Counted from the first letter of the stretch, positions 5,674 through 29,230 are shown. The stretch is 64,000 bases of DNA from Candidatus Altimarinota bacterium (GCA_965231215.1 OZ246423.1:1152001-1216000); one strand, 5' to 3'. Notes: generated by a model not told the origin, from the sequence alone. A program made the numbers and translations.

Positions 5674-6717
5674 ATGTTCGAAGCTTTTTCTAATATCGTT
5701 TTACAATTCGTTTTCTGGATTCAGGGAACCCCACTGCCCGATGGCCAAGCATTCGAGGTGGAAACTAAAATTCAGAAGGTTGAATTTAAAGAAGAACAGA
5801 ATGAATCTGCTTTGGAAGAAAAATTTACTGACCCCGATTTTTCTCGAATAGGGCTTAAAACCAATACCAATATTACCTCAATTCCATTAAGTGAAGTGTT
5901 AGGCGGAGGGCCGCACAAAGATGGTATTCCGGCTATTACCAATCCTCAAAACTGGGATAGTGTAGAGCAGGCCGCTTCATGGCTAAAAGCAGATCACTTG
6001 GGCGTGCTCTATGAATATGAAGGGGAAAAGCGTTTTTATCCCTATGATATTTTGTACTGGCATGAGATTGTAAATGATCAGATAGGGGATCATGCTTATA
6101 GCGTTACTTTCTGTCCACTTTGCGGGAGTGTGCTGATATTTGATCGATATCTAGATGGGAACCTCTACACCTTTGGGGTGAGTGGAAAACTCTGGGAATC
6201 CAACTTGTTGATGTATGACCAAACAACAGAAACTCTCTGGTCTCAAATCCGAGGGGAAGCGATGGTAGGAGATTTGACTGGTAAAAAATTGAATCTTCTC
6301 TCAAGCCAGGTTCTCAGCTTTACTCAACTTCAGTCTCATCATCCAAAAGCTATTGTAATGACTCCAGAAACGGGGCACAGAAGAGCCTATGGTAGTAGTC
6401 CTTATGGCGACTATGAAACTAATTCAGAGATTATGTTTGGGGTAAAAAATGAAGATAAAACCTTTCATCCAAAAGAACTATTTTATATCGTGAATTATCA
6501 AAGCTATTCTGTAGGATTTCATCTCAAAGACCTAAAACAAAAGAAATTGGCCTCACTTGAGGTTGACGGCAAAACGCTCACGGCTGAATTCACCCGAGAC
6601 AAAAAAATAATAATCCGAAGTCCAGAAAGGCACGTAATACCAGGATATTTTGCCATGTGGTTTTCATGGAAAACACATCAAGACTTGAATAAGTCTTACT
6701 GGTCTGACACTAATTAA
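5674..6717 (+). CDS. DUF3179 family protein
   Basis: GGPHKDGIPAI, WHEIVND, TFCPLCGS, FGVSGKLWESNLLMYD, WSQ, WFSW motifs. Confidence 0.88.
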   Translation: MFEAFSNIVLQFVFWIQGTPLPDGQAFEVETKIQKVEFKEEQNESALEEKFTDPDFSRIGLKTNTNITSIPLSEVLGGGPHKDGIPAITNPQNWDSVEQAASWLKADHLGVLYEYEGEKRFYPYDILYWHEIVNDQIGDHAYSVTFCPLCGSVLIFDRYLDGNLYTFGVSGKLWESNLLMYDQTTETLWSQIRGEAMVGDLTGKKLNLLSSQVLSFTQLQSHHPKAIVMTPETGHRRAYGSSPYGDYETNSEIMFGVKNEDKTFHPKELFYIVNYQSYSVGFHLKDLKQKKLASLEVDGKTLTAEFTRDKKIIIRSPERHVIPGYFAMWFSWKTHQDLNKSYWSDTN

Positions 6718-8297
6718 GGCGCCAGCGTGAGGATGAGCTCATCTACAGAGAATCCTGTTTTCTGAAAACTTACTTTTTTGTTGGTGTCTAGTACTACGAG
6801 AGTGTCTTGGGTAGTAACTCCAAATTTAGTTTTGAGTTCGCTTTCAGTATCATAATCAACCTTGAATATGATAGAATTCCCAACTATTTCGTTAAGTCGG
6901 TTTTCTATCTCTTTATTATGAGCTATGCATTTTGGGCACCAATCTGCGTGAAAAAAGAGCGCTACTTTTTGGTTTCCAAAAGCGGCATTCAAAGCCTCAG
7001 CTGTGAGGGGAACATATTCGGCTATTTCTTGTAAAACAAGAGAAGATCCTGCTACATTTTCGAGCGGAAGTTCAGCGCCAAAAAATTCACGACATTCGGG
7101 GAGCTGTTGTTGGAAACAAGCCTTTTGGGTACAGGCCATTAGTCCACCCGCTTCACCGCGGCTACAAGTATTACACCCATCATACCAAATTTTACAATTA
7201 TCTGGAGGTGTCAGAGGTGGGGTTGGAGTGTCAAAAAATTCACGACATTCAGGGAGCTGTTGTTGAAAACAAGCTCGCTTAGTACAGGCCATTGATCCGC
7301 CCGCTTCACCGCGGTTACAAGTATTACATCCATCATACCAGACTTTACAGTTTTCGGGCGGAGTAGCTGTACTCGGTGGGGCGATTTCAAAGAATTCTAA
7401 ACACCCAGTATCTTTAGTCTGACATTGCGTGAGGCTAGGGCAGATGAAAGGGCTATCTACTTCGATTCTTTCACATTTGGCACATCCATCAGCCCAGACT
7501 TTACAGTCAGAGGAAGCAAGATGGATATCTCCAGGGTTCGTTTCCGGAACTTTGGTTTGAGGTTTATTGGCTTTGATCATGAGTTTCCCATTGACAAAAG
7601 TTCGGCTCGATTTTTCAGTTATATTAGCTTTGATACGGTAAATTATTTCCGCCATTTCCCCTCTAGTGATACTTTTATCAAAGGTTTGAATACTCACAGG
7701 AATAGTATTGTTTTGACCTAGGTGAGTTACGTAGTTCTGATACCAGAGGTCACCTCCTTCTGCGATTTTATAGCCAAAGCTTTTGGTAATAATTTTTGAT
7801 GCCTCAACAAAATTTACATTTTGAGCCGGTCGGAAAGTCCCATCTGGATATCCGTTAATAACACCATTCTTTTTAGCCATACAAATATAAGGGGCAAACC
7901 AGGCATTTACTGGTACATCATCAAATCCGTATTGGTTTGGGCTGCACTGGCTAATTTCTTGAGTGCTAAAGTTAGCAGCTATAACAATTTTGGTGAGTTC
8001 GGCTCGGTTAATAGCCCTTTCTGGTTTGAAGGTTCCGTCATCATATCCTTTTACGATAGACTGATGTTTTACATAAGACACAGCATCATGGTTTTCATGT
8101 TCTAAATCTAAATCTGCAAAACCACTGGCAGCTACCGTACAGTACACTTCACCTGCCCATTCAGTAAATTCTCCTCCATTGGCTTCACAATCAGCTTTGT
8201 GATAAGCCTTTAAAAAAACCGTCCCTGGAGCAAATGAGAGAGCGTATACAGTTGAAAACAAAAATAAACCGAGAGCCGAAAATAAAATTTTTTTCAT
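6714..8297 (-). CDS. Secreted S-layer homology protein with Cys-rich repeats and C-terminal thioredoxin domain
   Basis: Signal peptide; SLH motifs GYDDGTFKPERAINRAE, GYPDGTFRP, ITRGEMA; three CxxWxDGCxxC units; FFHADWCPKC. Confidence 0.85.
   Translation of the reverse strand: MKKILFSALGLFLFSTVYALSFAPGTVFLKAYHKADCEANGGEFTEWAGEVYCTVAASGFADLDLEHENHDAVSYVKHQSIVKGYDDGTFKPERAINRAELTKIVIAANFSTQEISQCSPNQYGFDDVPVNAWFAPYICMAKKNGVINGYPDGTFRPAQNVNFVEASKIITKSFGYKIAEGGDLWYQNYVTHLGQNNTIPVSIQTFDKSITRGEMAEIIYRIKANITEKSSRTFVNGKLMIKANKPQTKVPETNPGDIHLASSDCKVWADGCAKCERIEVDSPFICPSLTQCQTKDTGCLEFFEIAPPSTATPPENCKVWYDGCNTCNRGEAGGSMACTKRACFQQQLPECREFFDTPTPPLTPPDNCKIWYDGCNTCSRGEAGGLMACTQKACFQQQLPECREFFGAELPLENVAGSSLVLQEIAEYVPLTAEALNAAFGNQKVALFFHADWCPKCIAHNKEIENRLNEIVGNSIIFKVDYDTESELKTKFGVTTQDTLVVLDTNKKVSFQKTGFSVDELILTLAP
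7081..7362. repeat. Intragenic tandem duplication, 153-bp (51-aa) period
   Basis: AAAAATTCACGACATTC...GAGCTGTTGTTG at 7081 and 7234, encoding near-identical Cys-rich units. Confidence 0.85.
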
Positions 8298-15303: not shown

Positions 15304-15327
15304 TTTACTTAAATTTTGTTCATCTTT

Positions 15328-16263
15328 ATGCCAGTAAAAAAGCCACTTCACGACCCTGTACTTCTCAATGAAATTTTGGATTTACTGGTTTTGGATCAAA
15401 CAAATGTGGTTTTTGATGGGACTTTGGGGTTGGGGGGACATGCCGAAGCTATTTTAACACACTGCCCAAAGTTAGATTTGTATGTTGGCTGTGATTTAGA
15501 TCAACAGCATTTAGATATGGCTAAGGAGCGACTCTCTCCTTGGGCCAAAAAGCTAAAGCTGTTTCAGGCTAATTTTTCTGAAATAGAGATTCTTCTGCCA
15601 GATGAAGTAGGGAATAAAGCGCTTAGTATTTTGTTAGATCTTGGAGTTTGTTCCAATCATCTAGATGATGGGGGGAAAGGGTTTTCATTTCAGTCTAATG
15701 GGCCGTTAGTGATGTCTTTTGATGGGACAGAAGAACCTAATTGCGAAACGATTGTTAATACCGCTTCTGAGGTAGAACTATCACAAATTTTAAAAGACTT
15801 CGGTGAAGAACCGCTCGCCAGAAAAATTGCAAAAAACATTGTGCAACATCGAACTCATAAAGCGATTAAAACGACTCAAGATTTAAGAGCTATTGTTGAA
15901 TCAAGCGTGTATCCCAAAGATAGAAAAAAAAGCCTCATGCGTGTATTTCAGGCGTTTAGAATTGCCACCAATGATGAACTTGGGCATTTAAAGCGAGTTT
16001 TGGAATCAAGTATTAAGTGTATGAAATCAGGGGATAGAATTGGAATTATTGCTTATCACTCATTAGAAGATCGTATCGTGAAAAAATTTTTTAAAGAAGG
16101 TTCAAAGCCTGAAACAATCAGTACCAAATTTGATTTACATCAAGAGGTAGCGCCTGCAAAGTTCAAGCTTATCACCAAGAAAGCCGTAACTCCGACTAAA
16201 ACAGAAATAAGTCAAAACCCTAGAGCTCGGTCAGCTCGATTGCGTATTGCTGAAAAAATCTAA
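15328..16263 (+). CDS. rsmH: 16S rRNA m4C1402 methyltransferase
   Basis: HDPVLL, DGTLGLGGH, DLGV, FQAFRIATNDEL, YHSLEDRIVK, NPRARSARLR. Confidence 0.97.
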   Translation: MPVKKPLHDPVLLNEILDLLVLDQTNVVFDGTLGLGGHAEAILTHCPKLDLYVGCDLDQQHLDMAKERLSPWAKKLKLFQANFSEIEILLPDEVGNKALSILLDLGVCSNHLDDGGKGFSFQSNGPLVMSFDGTEEPNCETIVNTASEVELSQILKDFGEEPLARKIAKNIVQHRTHKAIKTTQDLRAIVESSVYPKDRKKSLMRVFQAFRIATNDELGHLKRVLESSIKCMKSGDRIGIIAYHSLEDRIVKKFFKEGSKPETISTKFDLHQEVAPAKFKLITKKAVTPTKTEISQNPRARSARLRIAEKI

Positions 16264-16268
16264 AAAAT

Positions 16269-16631
16269 ATGAACGTAACTTATATAGACACAACACAAAG
16301 TAATCCATTAGAAAATGGAGGCCTGTCTTTGCAGGGTGCTGATTTTCTCAAATATGGGTTGAAATGTGCCTGGGGGCTCAACGTAATACTGGGGATTGTC
16401 TACTTAATGTTATTAAATTCTTTAGCTACTCAGGGGTTTGATCTCGAGTCTATAAAAGCCGATCAATTAGCCTTACAAAAAACAATTGAAGCTTCAGATA
16501 TTTCCCTGGCTATTCCTTCAAGTATGTATGCTTTGGAAAGTAATGAAATAATTCAGGAAATGCCTTTGGCCGATTACAAGAGTTTCTTCGTGGTAAGAGA
16601 TCATGAGGTCGCTTTTTTAGAGAAATATTAG
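16269..16631 (+). CDS. Probable FtsL-like cell division protein
   Basis: Single TM helix plus short coiled coil, directly after rsmH (canonical ftsL position). Confidence 0.55.
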   Translation: MNVTYIDTTQSNPLENGGLSLQGADFLKYGLKCAWGLNVILGIVYLMLLNSLATQGFDLESIKADQLALQKTIEASDISLAIPSSMYALESNEIIQEMPLADYKSFFVVRDHEVAFLEKY

Positions 16632-16713
16632 GCTCATTTTACATTCGTCGATCTTAGGCTTTTTTAGGCATTTTTTGGTTGAGTTTTAGGCCATTTTTTG
16701 GTATAATGCTCAG

Positions 16714-18915
16714 ATGATTTTGAACCTAAAATCTGCCTGTAGAACTGCGGTAAGCCGCACCAGGACAAGGAAAATGCTGATTTTATCAGTACTCATGCTT
16801 GTGCTTGGAGGTACGAGTTTTGCACAAAGTTTTCAGGTCAGAAATGCCGGAACCCTAAAAATTTTACAAACGAGACCTGATGCAGAGTCTGCGAGTTTTA
16901 TCGTTAGAGCGGATATGCGGATTGATCCGAATCACATGGTGATAATTGATGAACCGGTTACTACTACCCCTACTCCCACACCAACCACGCCTACACCTTC
17001 AGCGCCGGTTATCTCTAATTCAGGAGGAGGTTCTGGAGGTGAAAAATATGACGCTTCAAAGTGGATACTCGGGAGAGTGTATGACCAGCTGGTGAAAGCA
17101 AGAGAGGATGAACCTCTTTTGGCTTCAGCACCAGAAAGACCCGTGTTTCCAAAACATGGACCACCTGAAAATAGTTATATACCTGGAACGCAACTTCAGA
17201 CCAGTATAGTGCGAACAGAAACCATTGATCAATCAGATACTATTGATCAATCGGTTATTACAGAAGCTCCAAAACCTGAAAAAACAGTAGTAATACCGCT
17301 CAAAAAAGTGCTTAAAACGCCTTATGCCCCTGCCAGTAAAAAAGATTTTGTTATTCGGGAATCTTTAGAACTTGATTGGGATCAAGTGGATTTTCCTAGA
17401 GTTATAGAAGAGGATTATAAACTTTCGGCTTCTAAACCACTTAAAGAGGCTTGGAAGCCAGTATGCAAAACACTCTTTTATCATGGGGGTGACGAATTCT
17501 GGAAAATTATTGCTTCACTTCTTTTTTTCACACTTATAGGATTTACTCTTATCATTTTCCTTTTAGGTGTATTAGTACTGCTAATGCTTAAACATGAACG
17601 CGAAAAGAAAAGAGAGAAAAAGTGGAAAACAACGGCTAAAAGATGGCTTAAAAATATAGGGCTATTGAGTGCCATTATGATTAGTTTTTCCCATATTAAT
17701 ACGGTTTCAGCAACAACCACAACACCACAACTATTAATCTATGAAGGAGATCTTTTAAATAGCTCAGGAAGTCCACTGGGTGGTAGTTATGAGTTTAGAT
17801 TTAGTTTTTGGGATAATGCAGATTTTGAACCAACAGATGTGGTAGCCGGAGTACTCAATACGGCCGCTTCTGATTATCGTGGATGGACCGAAAGGCAAAC
17901 CGTAACGCTTGGATTTGATGGAGCTTTTTCTCATCAACTGGGTACCGTAACGGCCTTTACTACAGGGCTCTTTGATCAGGATTTTATTTACCTACAAGTC
18001 GAAGTTAAAGCGGCAGCAAGTCCTGACTCAAGCTTTGAAGTTATTGATGTAGAAACTTCAGATACGGCTATAGATCGTAAAATTATTGCCTCAGTGCCGC
18101 ATGCCTTCAATGCCAATAAATTGGACTACCGTAATGTGGGATATGGAACGGGGGAGATTCCTTATATTGATGAAGTTACCGGCCAACTTCCTGCGGGGAT
18201 TATTCCTGGAAGTGGAATCAGTATAACTGGTACGGATGCAAATACTTTTAGTATTGATCAAGATGGGGATGCTGGAGCGGGCGATACTCTTACATTAGAA
18301 TTTGGAAATACTATTGGTGAAACGCTTTCTTGGAACGGTATTACGGATCAATTTGAGTTGAGCGATGATTTTGACATTGCTGGAAATCTTATTGTTTCAG
18401 GGACGATTAATGGGGTAGTGGTAGGCACTCGAAATATTTCAGTAGTGCTCAGTCCTCGATATCCTAACTCAGCTTTTATCAAAGATGGGTCAGATAATCT
18501 TGGATCTATGTATGAAGAAAGTGATACCGTAAGTGGAAACGAAAAAAACATTCTGCGATGGGAAAGTCAGCAAGTAGGCACGCTGCAAGATTATGATACG
18601 ATTATTCGATTTCCGCTTCCTGGCAACTTTGATTCTTTTCAGGCTTCAGGTATTTCGCTTGACCTTAAAACCGATGGTGGTGGGCCAGTAGATGCAAAAC
18701 TTGATTTAATAGTAGAAAAAGAGGGAACAGCGGGGGACCAGCTTTCGGCTCTTGGGATAGGGCTTAACTCTCCAGGGGTTTGGGCTACACCAAACTACAC
18801 CATTGGTGGAACCTGGGTGGCAGGAGACATTATGGTGATCAAAATCAAAACCTACGCTCAAGGAACGAATTCAGTCCACCTTGGAGATATCAAACTTGAT
18901 ATGGTTACCAACTAA
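16714..18915 (+). CDS. Fibre-like surface protein 1 (signal peptide, P/T linker, TM, second internal signal-like segment, fibre module, C-terminal domain)
   Basis: PQLLIYEGDLLNSSGSPL...FRFSFWD domain, SVPHAFNA, GTDANTFSID...LEFG module, C-terminal YPN...DGSDN.G...QDYD...P.P..F domain. Confidence 0.7.
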   Translation: MILNLKSACRTAVSRTRTRKMLILSVLMLVLGGTSFAQSFQVRNAGTLKILQTRPDAESASFIVRADMRIDPNHMVIIDEPVTTTPTPTPTTPTPSAPVISNSGGGSGGEKYDASKWILGRVYDQLVKAREDEPLLASAPERPVFPKHGPPENSYIPGTQLQTSIVRTETIDQSDTIDQSVITEAPKPEKTVVIPLKKVLKTPYAPASKKDFVIRESLELDWDQVDFPRVIEEDYKLSASKPLKEAWKPVCKTLFYHGGDEFWKIIASLLFFTLIGFTLIIFLLGVLVLLMLKHEREKKREKKWKTTAKRWLKNIGLLSAIMISFSHINTVSATTTTPQLLIYEGDLLNSSGSPLGGSYEFRFSFWDNADFEPTDVVAGVLNTAASDYRGWTERQTVTLGFDGAFSHQLGTVTAFTTGLFDQDFIYLQVEVKAAASPDSSFEVIDVETSDTAIDRKIIASVPHAFNANKLDYRNVGYGTGEIPYIDEVTGQLPAGIIPGSGISITGTDANTFSIDQDGDAGAGDTLTLEFGNTIGETLSWNGITDQFELSDDFDIAGNLIVSGTINGVVVGTRNISVVLSPRYPNSAFIKDGSDNLGSMYEESDTVSGNEKNILRWESQQVGTLQDYDTIIRFPLPGNFDSFQASGISLDLKTDGGGPVDAKLDLIVEKEGTAGDQLSALGIGLNSPGVWATPNYTIGGTWVAGDIMVIKIKTYAQGTNSVHLGDIKLDMVTN

Positions 18916-19013
18916 AACAATCAAAAAAATTTAAGTAAAGTTTTTTTTAGAAAAAAGGGCTTTTTTTTTTGAATAAAATTGTTGTTCTTAGTATAGTCTT
19001 ATAAGTCTTGGTT

Positions 19014-20687
19014 ATGTCCATCAGGATTATAAAAACGCTTACTTTTTTGGGTCTTTCTGTTGTGTTGTCGACGGGGGTTATTTGGCAGTCTCATGCGGCA
19101 TTAGTATTTACGACTGAAGACAATGGAGTTCATGACCAGGTATTTTACATTGATTCTGGAGACACTTCCTCGGACTTTATCGACCTTGAATTTGGGACGG
19201 CCGTAGATGCTAAACTTAGGTATGATGTAATAAATGATAATTTTATCTTTAACCGAGATGTAAATTTTTCAGGCAATGTGGTGGAAGATGTTCGAGTAGA
19301 AAATTTAGCAACGCCTCCCACGTGTGATGCGGGGAGTATTGGGAGAATTTATTTCAATACAACCGATGTACTGTCTTATGTGTGTGATGGAACGACCTTT
19401 AATCCACTCGAAAATGTTTTAGGAGCTACAGTAGAATTTCCAGTGGTACAAGCGCGAAGAACTAGCACCTACACACTCACAACCGCCTTTGCAGATATTG
19501 ACCTGGACACAACCGATTTAGAAAATGATACAGTCAGCCTAGACCATGATGATACCTTACGTGACAGAATTAATATTGGGGAAACCGCTATGTACCAGAT
19601 TATCTATGGATACACGGCCGGAGGAACGGCTACGGGAACCCATGAAGCTCGAGCACGAGTGAGGGTAAACGACACCACTGTATTACCTGGATCAGAATCG
19701 GTAAACCGAAATTATCAAGTAGAATTTTCGACCACTTCAGCGTCTTTCTTGGCTAATCTTACAGCCGGGGATTTTATTTCATTACAGCTCAACAGAGACG
19801 CCACAGCCGATAGCACTCAAGACGATATCTATTTTTCAATTGTGAAACTTGAAGGAATTAAAGGAGACAAAGGAGACAAAGGAGATCCTGGTATCCCAGG
19901 ATCGGCCGGAATAGGGACGGATGAAAATACTTTTATTTTAGACCAAGATGATACAGGGGGAGATGTAAAACTACAGTTTGGAGCCACCTTAGATGAAAGC
20001 CTTACTTGGAATAGTGCTCAGACGCGATTTGATCTTAGTAATACGCTTAGAACTCTGGGGAATTTAGAGCAAGACGGGAATGTGCTAACGCTAGATGCAG
20101 AAAATGCAGGCGCTGGAGCTGACGTGGATATTGTCGCGAATCAGGGCAGTGATAATGATGGAACCTTGCGTTATAATGCGACCCTCAACCAGTGGGAAAT
20201 TAGTAATGATGGAGGCGCCTTTGAGCCTATCTCAGTATTGACTTCAAACATAGCACAAGTCTACCAATCTGGGACGACTACCTTTAATGCTGCTACGCCT
20301 ATAACGTGGGATGGGACAAGTACTACTTTTAGAGTAATAGATTCACAATACGCTCATTCTACTACAGCCAATCCAAGCCGAGTAACGGTCAATGCCGATG
20401 GTATTTATGAAGTGAATTATTCTATTGCTTGGGATACAACAGCTAATGCTCGTCGTACGGCCACTTGTGCCTTCTTTGTAAATGGCTCAGCGGTTACCCC
20501 AACCGTAGGAACAAGTCATGATTATTCCCGTAATAATAATGATGATTTTGGGAGCAATTCGTCTAGTTTTTTCTATGACTTTACGGCCGGGGATTACTAT
20601 GAGATTTACTGTCAAAGTACTGGAACTGCTGGAAGTATTACAACCCTGGCCAATCAAAGCTCTACGAGTATAAAACTGATTAGATAG
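19014..20687 (+). CDS. Fibre-like secreted protein 2 with short collagen-like segment and C1q/BclA-like domains
   Basis: Signal peptide; LVFTTEDNG N-module; GIKGDKGDKGDPGIPG; C-terminal SRVTVNADGIYEVNYSI. Confidence 0.7.
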   Translation: MSIRIIKTLTFLGLSVVLSTGVIWQSHAALVFTTEDNGVHDQVFYIDSGDTSSDFIDLEFGTAVDAKLRYDVINDNFIFNRDVNFSGNVVEDVRVENLATPPTCDAGSIGRIYFNTTDVLSYVCDGTTFNPLENVLGATVEFPVVQARRTSTYTLTTAFADIDLDTTDLENDTVSLDHDDTLRDRINIGETAMYQIIYGYTAGGTATGTHEARARVRVNDTTVLPGSESVNRNYQVEFSTTSASFLANLTAGDFISLQLNRDATADSTQDDIYFSIVKLEGIKGDKGDKGDPGIPGSAGIGTDENTFILDQDDTGGDVKLQFGATLDESLTWNSAQTRFDLSNTLRTLGNLEQDGNVLTLDAENAGAGADVDIVANQGSDNDGTLRYNATLNQWEISNDGGAFEPISVLTSNIAQVYQSGTTTFNAATPITWDGTSTTFRVIDSQYAHSTTANPSRVTVNADGIYEVNYSIAWDTTANARRTATCAFFVNGSAVTPTVGTSHDYSRNNNDDFGSNSSSFFYDFTAGDYYEIYCQSTGTAGSITTLANQSSTSIKLIR

Positions 20688-20773
20688 TAATTTAAAACAA
20701 GTTTAGAATTATGCAACATTATTAGATTCTAAAAAATGTGTTTTTTTGGTATAATCCTTGGATATTTTTATAC

Positions 20774-22573
20774 ATGTGTAGACCTTATCTAAGGCAAATT
20801 TTAATCTTTATCTGGCTCAGCCTAGCGGGGAACCCGCTTGCTGAGGCGGCACTAGTATTTACGACTGAAGATAATGGAACTCATGACCAGGTATTTTATA
20901 TTGATTCTGGAGATACTTCAGCGGACTTTATTGACCTTGAGTTCGGGACGTCTGTAGATGCTAAACTTCGGTATGATGTGATAAATGATAATTTTGAATT
21001 AAATCGAGACACCAATTTTGGAGGCAATGAAGTCACCGATGTTCGAGTAGAAAATGCTGGCTCGGCCCCTACTTGTGATGGGACTCGCATTGGACGTCTT
21101 TATTACGATACAGGTAATAGCTCAATCTATGTGTGTGATGGAAGTAATTGGAATTCGCTCGATAAAAGTACAGTACTAATTGATGAGGATGACAATACCC
21201 AAATTCAAGTAGAAGAAGGCGTGGATGATAATACAATTCGTTTTGATACAGCCGGAGTTGAACGAGGTGTTTTTGGTAGTACTGGAAACTTCACCCTCAA
21301 TAATTCGGCTGGAACGGCTGAAGTTATAACCTTTAACCAGGGGAAAGGAAGTTCATCGAGTGCGCCAGATATCCAATTTGGGACAGATGGATTACTAGTA
21401 GCTGAATCGGATTTAGTTTTGAATATAGATTCAGATAATTCAGAAACGACTGCGAATCTAAGAATTATGCACAATGCGAATAATACCACTACGGCCACAG
21501 AGTTAGCTCGGCTGGATGAAGCTGGAAATTTTGGCCTAGGAGTAGACCCTACCTCTGATTTGCATATTCGAAAAGTTTCTGGAAATACTCAAATTCTTTT
21601 AGAAACCAATGTCGATATAGGATCGGGAAACGATACGTCGTTGTTCTTCACTAGTGATGCTGATGGGACGCCTAACTCAGCAGGGTTAGGGCAGTTTAAT
21701 GATGGAGCTTTACGCTTTACTGGAGCTGGTAACTTAGCCGTTCCCGATGTGATTATTGATGATGCTGGAGAAGTAGGAGTAGGCGGGTTAACTGATCCTC
21801 AAGCGCAACTTCATATTCAGCACAGTGGTAGTGCCCTTAGATTTGAACGTACAGGATATGATACATATGAATTCCAACAATCACTGGGGACTGGATTAGC
21901 CATTCAAAATATAACCGATGCCCAAAATGAACTCTTTTTCACCGGCAATGGAAGTATCGTTGTGAATGGTACAGCTGAAACCATTGATAGTGATGGTGGA
22001 GCCTTTGTATTGGATGGAGGAGATTTATTTGTGGCTGATGAACTAGGGGTCGAAGGAGCTATTTATACAGACGATACCGCTACTAAATACCAATTCGTAG
22101 AAATGCATGGATGTGTAAGAGGTTCGGCCAACGCAGGGACTGTGGCGGGGGGCAATGCTCCGGTGGTGCGATTTGATGGTACTAACAATAGTCAGATGCG
22201 ATGTAGTCTGCCGGTTCCAGATGATTGGGTTGCGGGGACTGATATTAATATTGAAACCTACTGGTCACCTTCAGATAATACGAGTGGAGCGGTAGATTTT
22301 GATTTAGAATACGCTTTATTTGCTGTAGGAGAAACCGTTGCGACAGGAAGCTTTGTTGATACTATTCTAGGAACTACTTACGAGACAGTGAACCTAAATA
22401 CACAGTTAGATATATATGAAATGGTAGCCAATATTCCATCAGCTGATATTGCCCTCGATGATATGATAAGCTTTAACCTTCACAGAACGCCAGCAGATGC
22501 GGGTGATACCTATGGAGGAGATGTGAATATTCATATGATTCGTATGGCTTATACGGGTAAAAAACTAAAATAA
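20774..22573 (+). CDS. Fibre-like secreted protein 3 (tail-fibre-like beta repeats)
   Basis: Signal peptide; same N-module as protein 2; GNFGLGVDPTSDLHI and GEVGVGGLTDPQAQLHI repeats typical of phage-fibre-like proteins. Confidence 0.7.
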   Translation: MCRPYLRQILIFIWLSLAGNPLAEAALVFTTEDNGTHDQVFYIDSGDTSADFIDLEFGTSVDAKLRYDVINDNFELNRDTNFGGNEVTDVRVENAGSAPTCDGTRIGRLYYDTGNSSIYVCDGSNWNSLDKSTVLIDEDDNTQIQVEEGVDDNTIRFDTAGVERGVFGSTGNFTLNNSAGTAEVITFNQGKGSSSSAPDIQFGTDGLLVAESDLVLNIDSDNSETTANLRIMHNANNTTTATELARLDEAGNFGLGVDPTSDLHIRKVSGNTQILLETNVDIGSGNDTSLFFTSDADGTPNSAGLGQFNDGALRFTGAGNLAVPDVIIDDAGEVGVGGLTDPQAQLHIQHSGSALRFERTGYDTYEFQQSLGTGLAIQNITDAQNELFFTGNGSIVVNGTAETIDSDGGAFVLDGGDLFVADELGVEGAIYTDDTATKYQFVEMHGCVRGSANAGTVAGGNAPVVRFDGTNNSQMRCSLPVPDDWVAGTDINIETYWSPSDNTSGAVDFDLEYALFAVGETVATGSFVDTILGTTYETVNLNTQLDIYEMVANIPSADIALDDMISFNLHRTPADAGDTYGGDVNIHMIRMAYTGKKLK

Positions 22574-22574
22574 A

Positions 22575-24158
22575 ATGAAGAACTTCTATCCCCCTTTTTG
22601 GATCTTGATACTCACCTTCACCCCAACGGTGTGGGCGGATGATTTTGTACCTGAAGATCAAGAAAATGAGATTGTAGGAACCAGCTCCACCAATTTTACA
22701 ATTGATAGTGCCAATAGTGGAGGAGACCTTAAATTGCAGTTTGGGACAAACCTAGATGAATATTTGCAGTGGGATGCTACTAATCTTAGATTTAATCTAA
22801 GTGATACTTTAAGAGTAAGTGGTAATCTAGAACAAGATGGGAATATCCTGACTTTAGATACGGATAATACTGGAGCTGGAGCGGATATTGATATCGTGGC
22901 AGAACAGGGAAGTGATAGTAATGGAATACTCCGTTATAGTGCAGCTAATAACCGATGGGAAATTAGTAATGATGGGGGCCTCTTTAGCGGAATTGCTGCT
23001 GGGGGAACGATGTTAGTTTTTGATGAAACCTTAGCCAATAATGCTTCTACAGTCCTAACGCACTCAAGTGACTCAAATAATCAGAGAATCATTCAGGTAA
23101 AAGAGTTTATTACTAGTACTAGTGATACTGATACCTCTGTTGATTTTGATGAAGTAGATGAAGGGAATTATATCCAAGAAAATCCAACTACCGGTACAGA
23201 TTTCCTTGCTTCTTCGGTCAGACTTAGCGCTACTTTTGGAGGGACTGGAACCACTAATATGGCTTTAAATCAACCTAGTTCGGCTAGCAGTGAAAGTCAG
23301 CCATCAGAGGATGCTAACGACGGGGATGATGGAACTTTCTGGTATACCACTAATGGAGACTCAAATGGAGGCTGGTGGCAAGTAGATATAGGCCCCTCTG
23401 CTCCAGCGATAAACCAAGCTCAAATACGCTGGTTTAATGACACTGGAACTTATAATTGTAATCAATTAGATATTCAGGGGACTAACACCGATGGAAGTGG
23501 ATATACTACGGTTTATACAGCAGACACTAGTGGTGATGGGCAGGAAAATACTTATAACTTTACTCCTGCGGCCTATAGATACTGGAGATTTCTTTGTACA
23601 AATGCGGTAAATGCTAATTTCTATGTGATTCGGGAAGTAAGACTCTTTGAGGCTTTAGCTACCTACCCAACAACTCCGTTTTATGTAACCACCAATACCA
23701 ATAGCTTGACAACCAATAGCTGGGACGGGTTGACGACCCTAGACATAACTCAGACAACCCCCACTAGTACTTCAGTGCGGTATCTGGTATCTTTTGATGG
23801 TGGAACCACTTGGAAGTACTGGAATGGATCGGCTTGGACTAATTCAAGTTTGGCCAATCTTCAGACTCAAGGCATGACAGAAACGACTATCGAATCTATT
23901 TCTAGTGCACAGTGGTTTGCCGCTGGAGGCATTAATAGTGATGCTGCTGAGACTTTGGATTTTGCGATAGATTTAGACACAGATGATAATGCAGAAACCC
24001 CTTCAGTGGAGGGCATTTCGGTGACTTTTACGACCCCTAATTATTGGCAAGTGAATACTGAAAATTATGAAATTCAAGAATTTAATGATATAGAAACACA
24101 GGTTACCAATAAAACAGGGGCGAGCCAGACTGTAAAAATATCTATTATGGTTCCGTAG
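22575..24158 (+). CDS. Fibre-like secreted protein 4 with discoidin (F5/8 type C, CBM32-like) domain
   Basis: Signal peptide; GGDLKLQFG...GNLEQDGN...RWEISNDGG module shared with protein 2; NMALNQPSSASS...ANDGD...W...WWQVDIG...AYRYWR. Confidence 0.72.
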   Translation: MKNFYPPFWILILTFTPTVWADDFVPEDQENEIVGTSSTNFTIDSANSGGDLKLQFGTNLDEYLQWDATNLRFNLSDTLRVSGNLEQDGNILTLDTDNTGAGADIDIVAEQGSDSNGILRYSAANNRWEISNDGGLFSGIAAGGTMLVFDETLANNASTVLTHSSDSNNQRIIQVKEFITSTSDTDTSVDFDEVDEGNYIQENPTTGTDFLASSVRLSATFGGTGTTNMALNQPSSASSESQPSEDANDGDDGTFWYTTNGDSNGGWWQVDIGPSAPAINQAQIRWFNDTGTYNCNQLDIQGTNTDGSGYTTVYTADTSGDGQENTYNFTPAAYRYWRFLCTNAVNANFYVIREVRLFEALATYPTTPFYVTTNTNSLTTNSWDGLTTLDITQTTPTSTSVRYLVSFDGGTTWKYWNGSAWTNSSLANLQTQGMTETTIESISSAQWFAAGGINSDAAETLDFAIDLDTDDNAETPSVEGISVTFTTPNYWQVNTENYEIQEFNDIETQVTNKTGASQTVKISIMVP

Positions 24159-24546
24159 TTGAGGTTGAAAAGTTGTGCTGATCTTTTCTGGCACCATTTG
24201 GGGTTTTATAGATGAGGGAATGTAGAGATTTTTGAAGGGCTTTACTCTGTCCCATTTCAGGATGAAATTATATGAAATATAATACATATTTTTAATGCCT
24301 TTAATTTCTGTAAAAGCTTATTTTTAGAGTCTTGTATTGAGTAATTTTTTTATTCATTATTAAATTTAAGTATAATTTTTTTGTTCTTTTCTTTTGACAT
24401 TAATTTTTAATTAAAGTATACCGGTTTTGACCCCCCGCAAAAACAGTCTGGAAATCTTCAGAAAAATGGTTGAAACTTGCCATTTATTATGATACAATTT
24501 CCAGATTTTGTTTTATAAAAATCAAAACAAACCTAAAAAAATTAAT

Positions 24547-27500
24547 ATGAAACAATGGTTGAAACGGCAGTCGACGAGAAAGGGATTAAGTCTCTTAACA
24601 CTTGTAACGCTTAGTTATTCGATCTTTGCTCCTACCGCAGAGGCGCGCCTTATCTTTTCGACAGAAGATGATGGAACGGAATCTGACACTTATACTCTAG
24701 ACGTAGAAGGTGGGAATGCCGATGGAGCGAATGTGGATTTAGGAATTACCTTTGGGGGAGCGCTTAGCACTCCAGGGAGTCTTATCTATAATGATTCAAC
24801 CGGAGAATTTACTTTCAATAAAGCTGTGGATTTCGGAGGCAATGAAATTCAAGACTTTAGAGTAGAAAAACTCCCAACTGCTTCAGCTCCAACTTGTGCT
24901 GCCGCAGGTGATGCTGGACGAATGTATTATGATACAGACACTAATGAAATGATGGTTTGTACGGGAACGGTCTGGAATTCAGTAGAAGATCTTGATGGAG
25001 CGCTTACCGATGGGAACATCTTTGTAGGAAACGCCTCTAATCAAGCGACTGGAGTGACAATGAGTGGAGACGTAACGATTTCAAATACGGGCGTAACCAC
25101 GATTGGAGCGAATGCTATTGGATCAGCAGAAGTATCAAACAACACGCTTACCGCCGATGACCTAGCGACCGACTCAGTAGGAGCTGATGAGATTGCGGCT
25201 AACGCGGTAGGTTCAGCAGAGATTGCTACAAACGCCGTAGGAGACGATGAGATTGATTACACAAATGTAACGCTCTCTGACTTCACCAATGATCTATCAC
25301 TTACCTCTGCCAATATTTTTGTAGGGGATGGGTCAAACCAAGCGGCCGGAGTAGCTCTAAGTGGAGACGCGACCATCTCAAACACGGGAGTACTGACAAT
25401 CGGAGCGAATGCTATTGGATCAGCAGAAGTATCAAACAACACACTTACGGCTGATGACCTAGCTACTGATTCGGTAAACGCCGATGAGATTGCGGCTGGA
25501 GCGGTAGGAACATCAGAATTGAACGCTACAGGAGCGGGGAATGACAAAAGACTTACGACCAATGGAACTGGAGACATGGTATGGATAGATGATAATGCCC
25601 TTGATAATACCCTCACCTCCGCGAACATCTTCGTAGGTAACGGATCAAACCAAGCGGCCGGAGTAGCTCTAAGTGGAGACGCTACCATTGATAACACTGG
25701 TGCTCTAACTATTGCAGATAACGCAGTAGACGGAACCGATATTAGTGTAGCGGGTGAAGGCGCTGGTTCTGTAATGTACCATGATGGAACAGATTGGGTA
25801 AATCTAGGAGTAGGAACGGCCGGACAAGTATTATCGGTAAACGCTGGGGCTACAGCTCCTGAGTGGATTACAACCTCTAGCTCTTTAGAGGGGCTAACAG
25901 ATACAAATATTACAGGCGCTGCTGATGGAAACATCCTCGTATATGACAACACTAACTCTGAATGGGATAATGTAGCCGCTTCAGGAGACGCTACGATCTC
26001 AAATACAGGCGTCATTGATTTAGCCAATGGAGCTGTAGAAGCTTCAGAAATTGCAGACGGAGCGGTATCAGGAGGAACGGGAGGGGTCATTACCGACGAA
26101 TCTATTACCGCCGATGACCTAGCGACCGACTCAGTAGGTGCTGATGAGATTGCGGCTAACGCGGTAGGTTCAGCAGAGATTGCTACAAACGCCGTAGGAG
26201 ACGATGAGATTGATTACACAAATGTAACGCTCTCTGACTTCACCAATGATCTATCACTTACTTCTGCGAACATCTTCGTAGGTAACGGATCAAACCAAGC
26301 GGCCGGAGTAGCTCTAAGTGGAGACGCTACCATTGACAACACTGGTGCTCTAACTATTGCAGATAACGCAGTAGACGGAACCGATATTAGTGTAGCGGGT
26401 GAAGGCGCTGGTTCTGTAATGTACCATGATGGAACAGATTGGGTAAACCTAGGTATTGGAACCGCTGGCCAAAGACTACAAGTAAACGCTGGGGCTACAG
26501 CTCCGGAGTGGGTAACAGATAATGCACTTTCTGATACACTAACAGACGGAGATATCTTCGTCGGGAATGGATCAAACGTAGCGACTGGAGTGACAATGAG
26601 TGGAGACGTAACGATTTCAAATACGGGCGTAACCACGATTGGAGCGAATGCTATTGGATCAGCAGAAGTATCAAACAACACGCTTACCGCTGATGACCTA
26701 GCGACCGACTCAGTAGGAGCTGATGAGATTGCGGCTAACGCGGTAGGTTCAGCAGAGATTGCTACAAACGCCGTAGGGGACGATGAGATTGATTACACAA
26801 ATGTAACGCTCTCTGACTTCACCAATGATCTATCACTTACCTCTGCCAATATTTTTGTAGGGGATGGATCAAACCAAGCGGCCGGAGTAGCTCTAAGTGG
26901 AGACGCGACCATCTCAAACACGGGAGTACTGACAATCGGAGCGAATGCTATTGGATCAGCAGAAGTATCAAACAACACACTTACGGCTGATGACCTAGCG
27001 ACCGACTCAGTAGGAGCTGATGAGATTGCGGCTGGAGCGGTAGGAACATCAGAATTGAACGCTACAGGAGCGGGAAATGACAAAAGACTTACGACCAATG
27101 GAACTGGAGACATGGTATGGGTAGATGATAATGCCCTTGATAATACCCTCACCTCCGCCAACATCTTTGTAGGGAATGCATCAAATGTAGCTGCCGGAGT
27201 AGCGATGAGTGGAGACGCTACGATCAATAATACTGGAGCCTTGGATCTTGCTGATGATGCGGTAGAAGCCTCAGAACTTAACGCTGACACCGCTGGTCTA
27301 GGTATTACTCAAGCTGTTTCAGGAGCTCTAGATGTGAATGTAGACGATTCTACTATTGAAGTAGAGACTGACATTGTTCAGGTTAAAGATGACGGGATTA
27401 CCGCTGCTAAATTAAACGCTGATACAGCTGGAGACGGTCTGGTTCAAAATGGTGGAACAGGAGCTCTAGATGTAAATGTGGATGATACCACTATTGAAAT

Positions 27501-28014
27501 TAATGCAGATGTACTTCAAATTAAAGACCGAAACGTAACGCTGAATATGCCAGTAGAGTATCCTAACTTTACACTTGTAGCCGATGGATCAGCTAACCGA
27601 GGAACCTTTGAATCTGATCACGATGCTACAGCGGTGAGAAACTACTACCAATGGTCTACGCGAAGAGCCACTCAACAAGACTACGATCTAGTGGTTCAAT
27701 GGCCAATCCCAGATGATTTCCAAGAATTCCAAGCGACAAACCCAATTCAGTTCTTGTACCAAACAACTGATGCGACAGCTGGGGATAATGAAATTGATGT
27801 GATTAGTCTAAGTGATACGGCTGGAGCGGCCGTCACCCTGACAGGTTCTAATGTTGATCTTGTAAACACAGCTTGGACTACACACGATCTTAATTACTCT
27901 GGAACTCCAACCTTCACGGCTGGAGAGTACATTACCTTAACGCTACGTCTACACGCAGACAATGGAAATGTTTCACGGCTAGGAGAAATGATCTTCAATT
28001 ACGTAGCTAAATAG
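24547..28014 (+). CDS. Long repeat-shaft fibre-like secreted protein 5
   Basis: Signal peptide ending AEA; related N-module; repeats of IFVG.GSNQAAGVALSGDATISNTG..TIGANAIGSAE; C-terminal domain homologous to protein 1; promoter TTGAAA-17nt-TACAAT at 24470-24498. Confidence 0.75.
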   Translation: MKQWLKRQSTRKGLSLLTLVTLSYSIFAPTAEARLIFSTEDDGTESDTYTLDVEGGNADGANVDLGITFGGALSTPGSLIYNDSTGEFTFNKAVDFGGNEIQDFRVEKLPTASAPTCAAAGDAGRMYYDTDTNEMMVCTGTVWNSVEDLDGALTDGNIFVGNASNQATGVTMSGDVTISNTGVTTIGANAIGSAEVSNNTLTADDLATDSVGADEIAANAVGSAEIATNAVGDDEIDYTNVTLSDFTNDLSLTSANIFVGDGSNQAAGVALSGDATISNTGVLTIGANAIGSAEVSNNTLTADDLATDSVNADEIAAGAVGTSELNATGAGNDKRLTTNGTGDMVWIDDNALDNTLTSANIFVGNGSNQAAGVALSGDATIDNTGALTIADNAVDGTDISVAGEGAGSVMYHDGTDWVNLGVGTAGQVLSVNAGATAPEWITTSSSLEGLTDTNITGAADGNILVYDNTNSEWDNVAASGDATISNTGVIDLANGAVEASEIADGAVSGGTGGVITDESITADDLATDSVGADEIAANAVGSAEIATNAVGDDEIDYTNVTLSDFTNDLSLTSANIFVGNGSNQAAGVALSGDATIDNTGALTIADNAVDGTDISVAGEGAGSVMYHDGTDWVNLGIGTAGQRLQVNAGATAPEWVTDNALSDTLTDGDIFVGNGSNVATGVTMSGDVTISNTGVTTIGANAIGSAEVSNNTLTADDLATDSVGADEIAANAVGSAEIATNAVGDDEIDYTNVTLSDFTNDLSLTSANIFVGDGSNQAAGVALSGDATISNTGVLTIGANAIGSAEVSNNTLTADDLATDSVGADEIAAGAVGTSELNATGAGNDKRLTTNGTGDMVWVDDNALDNTLTSANIFVGNASNVAAGVAMSGDATINNTGALDLADDAVEASELNADTAGLGITQAVSGALDVNVDDSTIEVETDIVQVKDDGITAAKLNADTAGDGLVQNGGTGALDVNVDDTTIEINADVLQIKDRNVTLNMPVEYPNFTLVADGSANRGTFESDHDATAVRNYYQWSTRRATQQDYDLVVQWPIPDDFQEFQATNPIQFLYQTTDATAGDNEIDVISLSDTAGAAVTLTGSNVDLVNTAWTTHDLNYSGTPTFTAGEYITLTLRLHADNGNVSRLGEMIFNYVAK
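25045..27172 (+). repeat. Near-identical intragenic direct repeats
   Basis: ~25045-25636 recurs at offset 1536; sub-blocks recur at offsets 957 and 645; all multiples of 3. Confidence 0.9.
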
Positions 28015-28240: not shown

Positions 28241-29230
28241 TTATTGTCCAGATTGCTCACGGGCTTTGGTGGCTATCTGGCTCGCAATGGTTTTAATTTT
28301 ATCTGTAAGGGTTTGGTTTTTATCATTTAAATTAAAGCTCTCATCGGCTAAATTCCAGGCCTGTTTGCTCGTAGCGATAACTTCTTCAATTCGTCCTTCA
28401 CTACCAGCGATATAAGCGCCAGTGATATTTTTAAGAGCTTTTACAACTTTATCGGCAGAAAGGACAATACTATTCTGGGGAAGAAGCTCTAAAGCATAGG
28501 TAGAAAACTTCTCAGCAATAGAAACCAGCACTGCAGCGGTTCCAATCTCTTGTTTTTCAATAAATTCAATACTTTTGATTAGGTGAATTTCGGCCAAATT
28601 AAGCAAGGTTTGAGGGTTAAGCCCTTTGCCTTGTCTCAGCATAGAAAAAATAAGGTCAGCAGCCTCGCCTCGGGTCAGCTCTTTGCCTGGATGTATATTG
28701 TTATCTTGATCTGGGGTGACGATCTTGTATTTAACCGCAAACTTTAGGTAAGGGGCAAACCAAATATCATCTGGTACATCACTGATAGGTACCTCTCCTA
28801 ATTCGTATTGAGTAGGATCAATTTCAAAGCTGAGCATAAGCATTTTTATAAACTCCGCTTTATTAACGGTTCTGCCTGGAGCGAAATTTCCAGTCGTAGA
28901 GTCACCAGAAACAATTCCTAGAGTGGCTGCATGATTTATGAAAGGCGCGAACCAAATGTCCTTTGGGACATCAGCAAATTTTGTTTCAGTAGCTTCCTCG
29001 GCTTCAATTTCCGCCGCAATAAGAATTATTTTAAGTGATTCAGCTCTGTTAATCAGCTTGTCTCGTCCAAAAGAACCATCGTCATAGCCTTTGAAGATAC
29101 TATGTTGTTCAAGATAGGTTGTAGCTGGATAAAATTCATCCTGAATATTAATATCAGTGAAGGCAAAAACACTGGTTGGAGAAACTAAAAAAGTGAAGAT
29201 TATGAGTTGTTTGAAGTAAGGCTTATTCAT
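28241..29230 (-). CDS. S-layer homology domain protein (3 SLH plus helical C-terminus)
   Basis: Signal peptide; GYDDGSF...INRAE, FADVP..WF, VNKAEF, LTRGEAA. Confidence 0.88.
   Translation of the reverse strand: MNKPYFKQLIIFTFLVSPTSVFAFTDINIQDEFYPATTYLEQHSIFKGYDDGSFGRDKLINRAESLKIILIAAEIEAEEATETKFADVPKDIWFAPFINHAATLGIVSGDSTTGNFAPGRTVNKAEFIKMLMLSFEIDPTQYELGEVPISDVPDDIWFAPYLKFAVKYKIVTPDQDNNIHPGKELTRGEAADLIFSMLRQGKGLNPQTLLNLAEIHLIKSIEFIEKQEIGTAAVLVSIAEKFSTYALELLPQNSIVLSADKVVKALKNITGAYIAGSEGRIEEVIATSKQAWNLADESFNLNDKNQTLTDKIKTIASQIATKAREQSGQ

Follow-up and report, generated by a model that had tools for sequence, protein, structure and literature searches.

What do five neighbouring genes encode that follow rsmH and an ftsL-like gene in a bacterium belonging to the candidate phyla radiation (CPR), and that look as if they had been assembled from a common stock of parts? 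The genes lie in a stretch of 64,000 nucleotides from Candidatus Altimarinota bacterium (GCA_965231215.1, OZ246423.1:1152001-1216000), hereafter called the window, in which positions are counted from the first letter; an earlier note, made from the sequence alone, had read them as a set of modular secreted adhesins. On balance we consider it probable that these genes, together with a sixth paralogue and a neighbouring gene for a protein with surface-layer homology (SLH) repeats, encode a repertoire of homotrimeric cell-surface fibres with lectin-like tips that serves attachment. The computed basis of this reading is the sharing of modules, the chromosomal context, the distribution among relatives, the folds of the tips and the predicted trimer of modules B and C; what we infer is that the fibres stand on the surface, how they are anchored, that they bind glycans and that they help the cell to attach to host or prey. 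The five genes are as follows.

16714-18915, plus strand: P1, 733 amino acids
19008-20687, plus strand: P2, 559 amino acids
20738-22573, plus strand: P3, 611 amino acids
22575-24158, plus strand: P4, 527 amino acids
24508-28014, plus strand: P5, 1168 amino acids

All five proteins are acidic (isoelectric point 4.05-4.86), Gly, Thr, Asp and Asn make up 29-42% of their residues, and each has an N-terminal hydrophobic leader, as judged by eye and by hydropathy of the sequence without a signal-peptide predictor. The open reading frames, isoelectric points and composition agree with the initial description of five co-oriented, leader-bearing proteins rich in these residues. All-against-all blastp of P1-P5 recovered the following shared parts.

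Module A: P2 28-135 with P3 35-142, 71% identity, E 2e-46
Module A: P5 42-160 with P3, 39% identity, E 6e-19
Module A: P5 42-160 with P2, 33% identity, E 1e-16
Module B: P1 497-565 with P2 296-359, 49% identity, E 5e-9
Module B: P1 504-565 with P4 33-91, 39% identity, E 6e-7
Modules B and C together: P2 302-410 with P4 34-142, 61% identity, E 1e-38
C-terminal domain: P1 573-731 with P5 1008-1166, 28% identity, E 8e-13

The three modules and the C-terminal domain common to P1 and P5, all of which the earlier note had pointed out, are thus seen at the E values listed above, 2e-46 to 6e-7. The resemblance that it had noticed between module B and the first half of module A is likewise detected by blastp (P1 506-560 with P3 47-99, E 1e-4; P2 46-102 with P4 41-96, E 8e-5), and a seven-row alignment of the A and B stretches reveals one common unit of ~65 residues. 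In P2, P3 and P5 the leader ends in a site of the AxA type and module A follows immediately. Modules A, B and C, as well as the N-terminal domain of the P1 type (hereafter N-domain), have no entry in the Pfam copy that was searched, and searches of PDB sequences with P1, P2, P3, P4 and P5 returned no significant relatives; matches to synaptotagmin, RANKL and a Cyt toxin (E 0.025-1) were discarded as noise. Pfam searches of P1-P5 at E<=0.1 found no S74 domain, no autotransporter (YadA-type beta-barrel) domain and no SLH domain; these searches and the inspection of the flanking genes uphold the earlier statement that S74 chaperones, autotransporter barrels and phage structural genes are missing.

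A sixth paralogue of 507 residues lies ~0.7 kb before the start of the window (L003:1501-3024, equivalent to G000:C1:1149798-1151321), where it adjoins sufC/sufB-like (suf) genes. It begins with a leader and the first half of module A, continues with a middle part like that of P3 (48% identity over ~290 residues), and then has module A's Cys hairpin before a C-terminal domain rich in Cys. The second half of module A, that is the Cys-containing hairpin, thus lies ~250 residues after the first half, which indicates that module A is itself composite.

The evidence for a trimeric build comes chiefly from modules B and C. A profile of module B, searched against a representative library of 1.84 billion proteins, retrieved 871 representative proteins (297 at E<=1e-10), with up to 24 copies per protein, situated both right behind leaders and deep inside the chains. 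(Among these are giant proteins such as P0121, with 6674 residues and 24 copies, P0127, with 3150 residues and 14 copies, and P0124, with 2745 residues and 10 copies.) Module B has no sequence relative in the PDB (0 matches at E<=10) and no match in Pfam. When P2 is modelled as a monomer, its A, B and C parts give poor models, with predicted local distance difference test (pLDDT) values of 33-79, and the stretch 296-415, which covers modules B and C, reaches 45-79. The following piece was then modelled as a homotrimer.

19893-20252, plus strand: P2 residues 296-415 (modules B and C)

In three runs, three copies of this piece gave an interface score (ipSAE) of 0.93 each time, with pLDDT 91-92, a partner pLDDT of at least 91 and ~500 contacts along the whole length of the piece, at least 97% of which were common to the runs; of three controls, the highest reached 0.00. 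According to the calibration of the score, which applies to the P2 trimer only roughly because a custom alignment and three copies went into it, 20 of 30 proteins solved as pairs of one chain came up to the mark, against 1 of 23 solved as single chains. As module B has no sequence relative in the PDB, it is less likely that the score reflects a structure already known to the predictor. The prediction supports, short of proof, the view that modules B and C would form an intertwined homotrimeric stalk and, together with the C1q/TNF-like folds of P2 considered below, it supports the trimers that the earlier note had expected. The proposal of the same note that modules A and B are a common docking unit fares differently: a module that is repeated inside proteins, in up to 24 copies and across 871 proteins, and that is predicted to build a stalk argues against such a function.

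P1 differs from the other members in its layout, which comprises a leader (residues 1-38), a variable part rich in Pro and Thr, a transmembrane segment (261-296), a basic loop, a hydrophobic signal-like segment (313-333) and an ectodomain (334-733). The ectodomain contains three parts.

17713-18135, plus strand: N-domain, P1 residues 334-474, beta-rich, AlphaFold2 pLDDT ~90, without Pfam match
18202-18417, plus strand: module B, P1 residues 497-568, seen by blastp and profile search
18445-18912, plus strand: beta-sandwich tip like a carbohydrate-binding module (CBM), P1 residues 578-733, common to P5, AlphaFold2 pLDDT >90

Homologues of P1 number 16 at E<=1e-3, with 34-61% identity over 23-99% of the query (34-50% for those of full length), and the ectodomain, from N-domain through module B to CBM-like tip, is the conserved part. 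Distant homologues begin at the second leader, and in locus L043 the two halves of P1 are separate reading frames. P1 is thus the conserved member of the fibre set and, as its hydrophobic profile suggests, is tethered to the membrane by the pair of hydrophobic segments. The N-domain is present in this genome in one copy only, that of P1, and recurs in Saccharibacteria, Parcubacteria, Moraniibacteriota, Bacteroidota (Terrimonas), Lysobacterales and other metagenome-assembled genomes (MAGs), where it starts directly after the leader in all 21 loci examined. Eight complete proteins with this domain were scanned; one ends in Peptidase_S74, one in CBM_4_9 and one in H-lectin, and the remaining five have no Pfam match. 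The domain shows the motif FQGxL..G...Y.F.F..Y...W.E...V..G.F...LG...PYAFNAD.LD (alignment A6). A profile of this alignment, searched against the PDB, in which the constructs of mosaic adhesive trimer (MAT) proteins are C-terminal, had its best match at E 0.0013 with an unrelated 'conserved domain protein', and a word-based regional search for the N-domain found close relatives only. A P1-type N-domain also occurs in a MAG of ~0.9 Mb labelled 'uncultured Bdellovibrionales' (L064, CAYTIK010000015.1); the 60 genomes sampled from its class measure 0.5-1.2 Mb, and the label is probably wrong.

The other four proteins combine the shared modules with different C-terminal parts, as listed below by residue number.

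P2: leader 1-30; module A 31-140; C1q/TNF/BclA-like jelly-roll 145-283; GXY triplets 283-303; module B 302-359; module C 360-410; second C1q/TNF-like jelly-roll 412-559
P3: leader 1-37; module A 38-145; beta-rich middle 146-439 (48% identity to the sixth paralogue); tip 440-611, without an assigned family
P4: leader 1-21; module B 33-91; module C 92-142; F5/8 type C (discoidin) domain 236-354; C-terminal domain 375-527
P5: leader to residue 46 (likely start at ATG 24547); module A 47-160; ~850 residues of internal repeats; CBM-like tip 1008-1168

Both jelly-rolls of P2 (145-283 and 412-559) model confidently, and their fold matches include C1q, adiponectin, TNF ligands, BclA, BxpB/ExsFA, the domain of a cyanophage short tail fibre and the knob of a phage spike (among them 8d02, 7r5i and 9h38). 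Since C1q, TNF ligands, BclA, BxpB/ExsFA and phage knobs are all known trimers, these folds support a trimeric build of P2. The BclA_C family is recognised in 19 of 24 P2-like homologues. The discoidin domain of P4 lies above the gathering scores of Pfam (PF00754 with 41.6 bits and PF22633 with 51 bits, against cut-offs of 28.2 and 27.8), so that P4 belongs to the F5/8 type C family, and its C-terminal domain matches phrog_16348, a family of unknown function, with E 1.8e-10. The tip common to P1 and P5 retrieves CBM61, CBM11, CBM29 and CBM6, MAM domains and a Klebsiella phage tailspike in Foldseek. For the tip of P3, the only leads are look-alikes that a language model finds among viral proteins (score 0.92-0.93), and searches of two phage collections returned no sequence relatives of it. 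The tips named in the earlier note have therefore been retained in two cases, the C1q/BclA-like fold of P2 and the discoidin of P4; its phage-like tip, that of P3, is left without a sequence match.

The DNA of the P5 repeats is composed of 300-nucleotide units that are up to 94% identical. Contigs from three sequencing runs of one study contain the locus unchanged; in run X3, one contig joins position 25104 to 26938, skipping 1833 bases (611 codons, in frame) inside the repeats, at a junction where 41 bases fit both sides, which could represent either a variant in repeat number or an assembly collapse.

Since P2 joins ExsFA/BxpB-like and BclA-like jelly-rolls with a short collagen stretch, one may ask whether these proteins form a structural coat, namely a nap or S-layer-associated layer similar to the BclA nap of Bacillus, that would serve protection or envelope architecture rather than specific attachment. 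The conservation and membrane tether of P1 would also suit a coat, as would the tight association of the fibres with an SLH-domain gene. This gene follows P5.

28241-29230, minus strand: SLH329, exported and small, in which three SLH repeats (Pfam SLH, 8.7e-23) are joined to a C-terminal part of ~130 residues

The 133 C-terminal residues of SLH329 are found in 18 of 41 relatives and follow the presence of module B closely, although the counts come from related, non-independent genomes: both are present in 17 genomes and neither was found in 19, with the C-terminal part alone in 1 genome and module B alone in 4. Where both occur, the SLH gene is no more than ~10 kb away from fibre genes in 13 of 17 genomes, and the four remaining ones are fragmented assemblies. 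SLH329 is therefore a candidate for the cell-wall adaptor of the fibre system, judging from its repeats and its neighbourhood. Another protein with SLH repeats is encoded in the upstream part of the window (6714-8297, minus strand); its 527 residues also include a pacifastin-type inhibitor motif and a thioredoxin domain, an unusual wall-anchored assortment.

The comparison of related genomes shows which parts of the system are stable and which are not. The order Sua5, small multidrug exporter, RsmH, FtsL-like protein and P1 is conserved in loci L021, L023, L043 and L047, a synteny with rsmH of the kind that the earlier note had proposed to test. In two genomes of the same genus (G004 and G002) the order extends from Sua5, exporter, RsmH, FtsL-like protein and P1 homologue through the fibres and a P5-like protein to the SLH protein, YebC and the exchanger. 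The genes enclosed between P1 and the SLH gene are four in the window; in G004 they encode an A-type protein of 880 residues, a P4-like protein and a split P5, and in G002 five proteins of 622-1084 residues, the P1 homologue of the latter genome carrying repeats of the P5 type. Flank proteins are 47-72% identical to those of G004 and G002, and the homologues of P1, P4 and P5 just 34-43%. (G004 also has a solitary P2-like gene away from the cluster, at L022:8850-11510.) In other genera (L024, L028, L030, L044 and L046) the cluster is located elsewhere, with the P1 homologue first and usually beside a homologue of the SLH protein.

Of the 41 relatives searched, 21 have module B, among them 13 of the 24 that belong to the same family, and in most cases it sits in clusters of several genes. 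Beyond these, 120 further genomes from across the phylum were sampled at E<=1e-5: module B was found in 1, a member of the same class, and in 0 of the 115 that belong to other Patescibacteria classes. The tips of module-B proteins were surveyed in 79 of 150 listed proteins, taken from about the first 115 rows and 338-977 residues long: BclA_C was found in 18, Bactofilin in 7 and C1q in 4, with single proteins bearing discoidin, LamG, MAM, H-lectin or gp53-like_C, and the first member scanned had no Pfam family at E<=0.001. Tips thus vary within the cluster and are shuffled across module-B homologues, as expected of the modular set with differing tips that had been proposed. A relative of the same class (G036:C31:48752-55684, locus L026) has a cluster with modules A and B and the P1/P5 tip, in which many in-frame TGA codons occur, 12 of them in the P1 homologue; these codons fit the TGA-recoded lineage of Gracilibacteria, so that the system spans both genetic codes.

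Against the coat speak the tips, whose discoidin, CBM-like and C1q/TNF-like domains are of kinds typical for binding; the repertoire, too, is very different from one genome to another of the same genus, as fits diversifying recognition better than a structural layer, and the system was not found in 20 of the 41 relatives searched. We therefore regard a structural role as rather unlikely and prefer attachment fibres.

The setting of the cluster is that of a cellular system. The source chromosome is a single contig of 1,326,059 bases, 99.3% complete, and the organism is a CPR bacterium of the Peribacteria/Gracilibacteria type; homologues of the cluster proteins come from MAGs labelled Candidatus Gracilibacteria, Peribacteria or Altimarinota. 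Housekeeping genes without phage-like genes flank the cluster on both sides.

Upstream: transketolase, Sua5, small multidrug exporter, RsmH, FtsL-like bitopic protein
15316-16263, plus strand: rsmH, directly before the ftsL-like gene
16269-16631, plus strand: FtsL-like bitopic protein, without Pfam match
Downstream: SLH-domain protein, YebC, Na/Ca exchanger, release factor, FtsZ, FtsA

No ftsI follows ftsL at the locus, and the genome's best match to PF00905, an ftsI-like transpeptidase gene, lies ~24 kb upstream of the cluster, so that the earlier note was right in finding ftsI out of its usual place. A connection of this gap with the fibres is not supported: in five of five relatives of the family that are without module B, no homologue of this genome's ftsI-like gene comes next to rsmH-ftsL, which is followed instead by genes for a BT1 transporter, a pyridoxal phosphate synthase, glycosyltransferases and unknown proteins. 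The broken order of the division and cell wall (dcw) genes is consequently a trait of the family and is not due to the fibre genes. Scans of the region for promoters and terminators gave site counts not above those in shuffles. Two promoter-like sites with an extended -10 element (TG) are placed at 16679-16707, before the first ATG of P1, and at 24470-24498, before ATG 24547 of P5; because they lie directly before these codons, they suggest that P1 may start at a downstream Met (16774) or be leaderless, and that P5 may start at 24547.

Could the cluster be the remnant of a phage or tailocin tail-fibre cassette, perhaps domesticated? Several similarities point in this direction, namely the phrog tail-fibre matches of the cluster proteins (E 7e-4 to 3e-3), the phrog_16348 match of P4, the language-model look-alikes of viral origin and a match of P5 to Mtd_N, which is a weak lead, being below the cut-off, confined to P5 and found in 0 of 24 P2-like homologues at E<=0.01. 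In phage collections P2 has one weak match, to a hypothetical protein of Rhodobacter phage RcCWillis (40% identity over 91 residues) that is not located among the phage tail genes, and in IMG/VR it has five weak loci (32-43% over 60-110 residues); the fold matches to tail proteins in BFVD have low TM scores. A kinship with phage receptor-binding proteins at the level of domains is thus plausible but weak. Conversely, the flanks contain no phage structural, integrase or lysis genes, signal peptides on all members and the transmembrane segments of P1 are features that virion fibres do not have, housekeeping synteny is kept across genera, and the P3 tip is without relatives in the phage collections. 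A phage or tailocin cassette is on these grounds extremely improbable and a prophage origin of the locus unlikely; membership in a virion tail fibre was rejected for the same flanks, free of tail and baseplate genes, and for the gene order kept in relatives, all of which accord with the cellular system that the earlier note had concluded. We also considered a link with a diversity-generating retroelement (DGR) and dismissed it, as the only RVT_1 genes of the genome lie at 327-329 kb and blastn of that region against the locus found nothing. These are two adjacent reverse-transcriptase genes (G000:C1:327388-329326, with frames of 455 and 674 residues) that may belong to a DGR, a retron or a group II intron.

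Several facts nevertheless weigh against surface fibres for attachment. The match of P2 to BclA_C, which lies inside the chain (residues 162-281, E 8e-8), scores 32.7 bits and so falls short of Pfam's cut-off of 38. The collagen-like stretch from which the earlier note had argued for trimers is indeed present, at residues 283-303, but is short, with just 7 GXY triplets. The fold matches of the P1/P5 tip to CBMs are only moderate (TM score, normalised to the target, 0.45-0.61), the trimer prediction covers one piece of 120 residues in P2, the genomes that associate SLH329 with module B share their descent, and an episymbiotic lifestyle of this organism is assumed by analogy with what is known of CPR bacteria. 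Moreover, neither Pfam nor inspection by eye detected a wall or membrane anchor (SLH, LPXTG or lipobox) in P2-P5, which, lacking a recognisable anchor, could be released proteins. According to this alternative, P2-P5 would be lectins or effector-like trimers that reach the medium or target cells and are not displayed on the producer, a possibility to which their cleavable-looking leaders also lend some credit. Long stalk modules, however, make little sense in soluble lectins; in P2, P3, P5 and the sixth paralogue the conserved module behind the leader resembles an end made for attachment, of the kind described for MAT fibres, and the fibres co-occur with a wall-binding SLH protein. Release from the cell is, in our judgement, very unlikely.

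Taking surface fibres as the preferred reading, each protein would be exported by its Sec-type leader and fold as a homotrimer, in which modules A, B and C, together with the repeats of P5, would make up an intertwined beta-stalk. The C-terminal domains would act as lectin-like tips: P2 would bear trimers of the C1q/TNF-like kind, P4 discoidin along with one more domain, P1 and P5 CBM-like sandwiches, and P3 a tip of unassigned fold. P1 would be held in the membrane by its paired hydrophobic segments, and P2-P5 presumably at the wall via the N-terminal module A, the SLH protein or both. Such a set would let the cell bind with several specificities, most probably to glycans that other cells carry, and the repertoire would change by shuffling of modules and genes in the island between P1 and the SLH gene. 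A wider idea, which we put forward as tentative and somewhat doubtful, is that Peribacteria, together with their relatives among the Gracilibacteria, recognise hosts by an apparatus of their own in three parts, in which P1 is the base, the SLH protein the wall adaptor and the genes between them a hypervariable cassette of interchangeable trimeric lectin fibres, with B/C stalks and a proximal module A, that sets the hosts or prey in the way cassettes of phage receptor-binding proteins do.

How CPR/Patescibacteria cells choose and hold their hosts is largely unknown, type IV pili being discussed in the literature available. If our reading is true, clustered and shuffling lectin-tipped trimeric fibres would be concrete candidates for determinants of host range in one CPR class, and several pieces could be produced and assayed in vitro with no need to grow the organism. 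The principle of mosaic adhesive fibres, represented by Bdellovibrio and phages, would also be extended to bacteria with a very different envelope, and with modules A, B and C the analysis introduces stalk units that are new, as well as an N-terminal domain of wide occurrence.

How, finally, does this system compare with those already known? No published description of these proteins or modules was found in the literature searched. In their available parts, the Peribacteria genome paper reports large extracellular proteins, often rich in cysteine, and S-layer genes, but not these fibres, and together with the Gracilibacteria metaproteomics paper it offers only large extracellular proteins, S-layer genes and pili. 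Two classes were set aside: trimeric autotransporter adhesins, because P1-P5 have no YadA-type barrel, and SLH-anchored proteins, because the three SLH repeats belong to the neighbour at 28241-29230.

With the BclA/ExsFA-BxpB exosporium nap of the Bacillus cereus group, P2 has in common the C1q/TNF-like jelly-rolls and a collagen-like GXY stretch; it differs in having 7 triplets, a BclA_C match below the cut-off and two jelly-rolls per chain that are split by modules B and C. P2 was consequently not counted among BclA-type exosporium glycoproteins, its BclA_C being internal and below threshold and a long collagen region being absent. CPR bacteria are not known to form spores, and BclA has an exosporium-targeting N-terminus, in contrast to the Sec leader found here. 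Phage tail fibres and tailspikes are similar in being trimers of modular build whose proximal end is conserved and whose distal tips can be exchanged, to which some weak likeness in sequence and fold may be added, whereas the present genes are chromosomal, lie among housekeeping genes with no virion genes nearby and encode signal peptides. The fibre proteins of Saccharibacteria, Parcubacteria, Bacteroidota and other MAGs that carry the N-domain have this same domain behind the leader and S74, CBM or lectin ends, but those examined are single large proteins of 482-2568 residues without modules A, B or C visible to BLAST, whereas P1 is short and clustered with fibres of the A/B type.

The closest described system is that of the MAT fibres of Bdellovibrio bacteriovorus, to which the likeness is one of architecture, by description. 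According to the available text of the original paper, that bacterium has 21 paralogues that form intertwined trimers, with a beta-rich, conserved domain about 130 residues long directly after the signal peptide and tips of S74, TNF-like, C-type-lectin or beta-sandwich type, a subclass without S74 being included (Caulton et al. 2024, PMC10769870). Measured against this account, both systems have many paralogues per genome; both place an N-terminal domain behind the leader, here module A of ~110 residues in four proteins or the N-domain of 140 residues in P1; both have an intertwined trimeric stalk, here predicted for modules B and C of P2; and both exchange their C-terminal tips, here TNF/C1q-like, discoidin and CBM-like, with no S74 in P1-P5. 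The comparison with mosaic adhesive trimers drawn by the earlier note was therefore apt as far as architecture is concerned. The differences lie in the phylum, a CPR lineage in which no outer membrane is expected, and in the clustering of the genes, the term 'gene cluster' occurring 0 times in the available text of the MAT paper (PMC10769870). Further features seen here are modules A, B and C without relatives in Pfam or the PDB, one member tethered by transmembrane segments and an SLH partner gene. Mosaic trimeric adhesive fibres being already known, what is new here is the stalk modules, the clustered and variable layout and the SLH partner, all of them in a CPR lineage.

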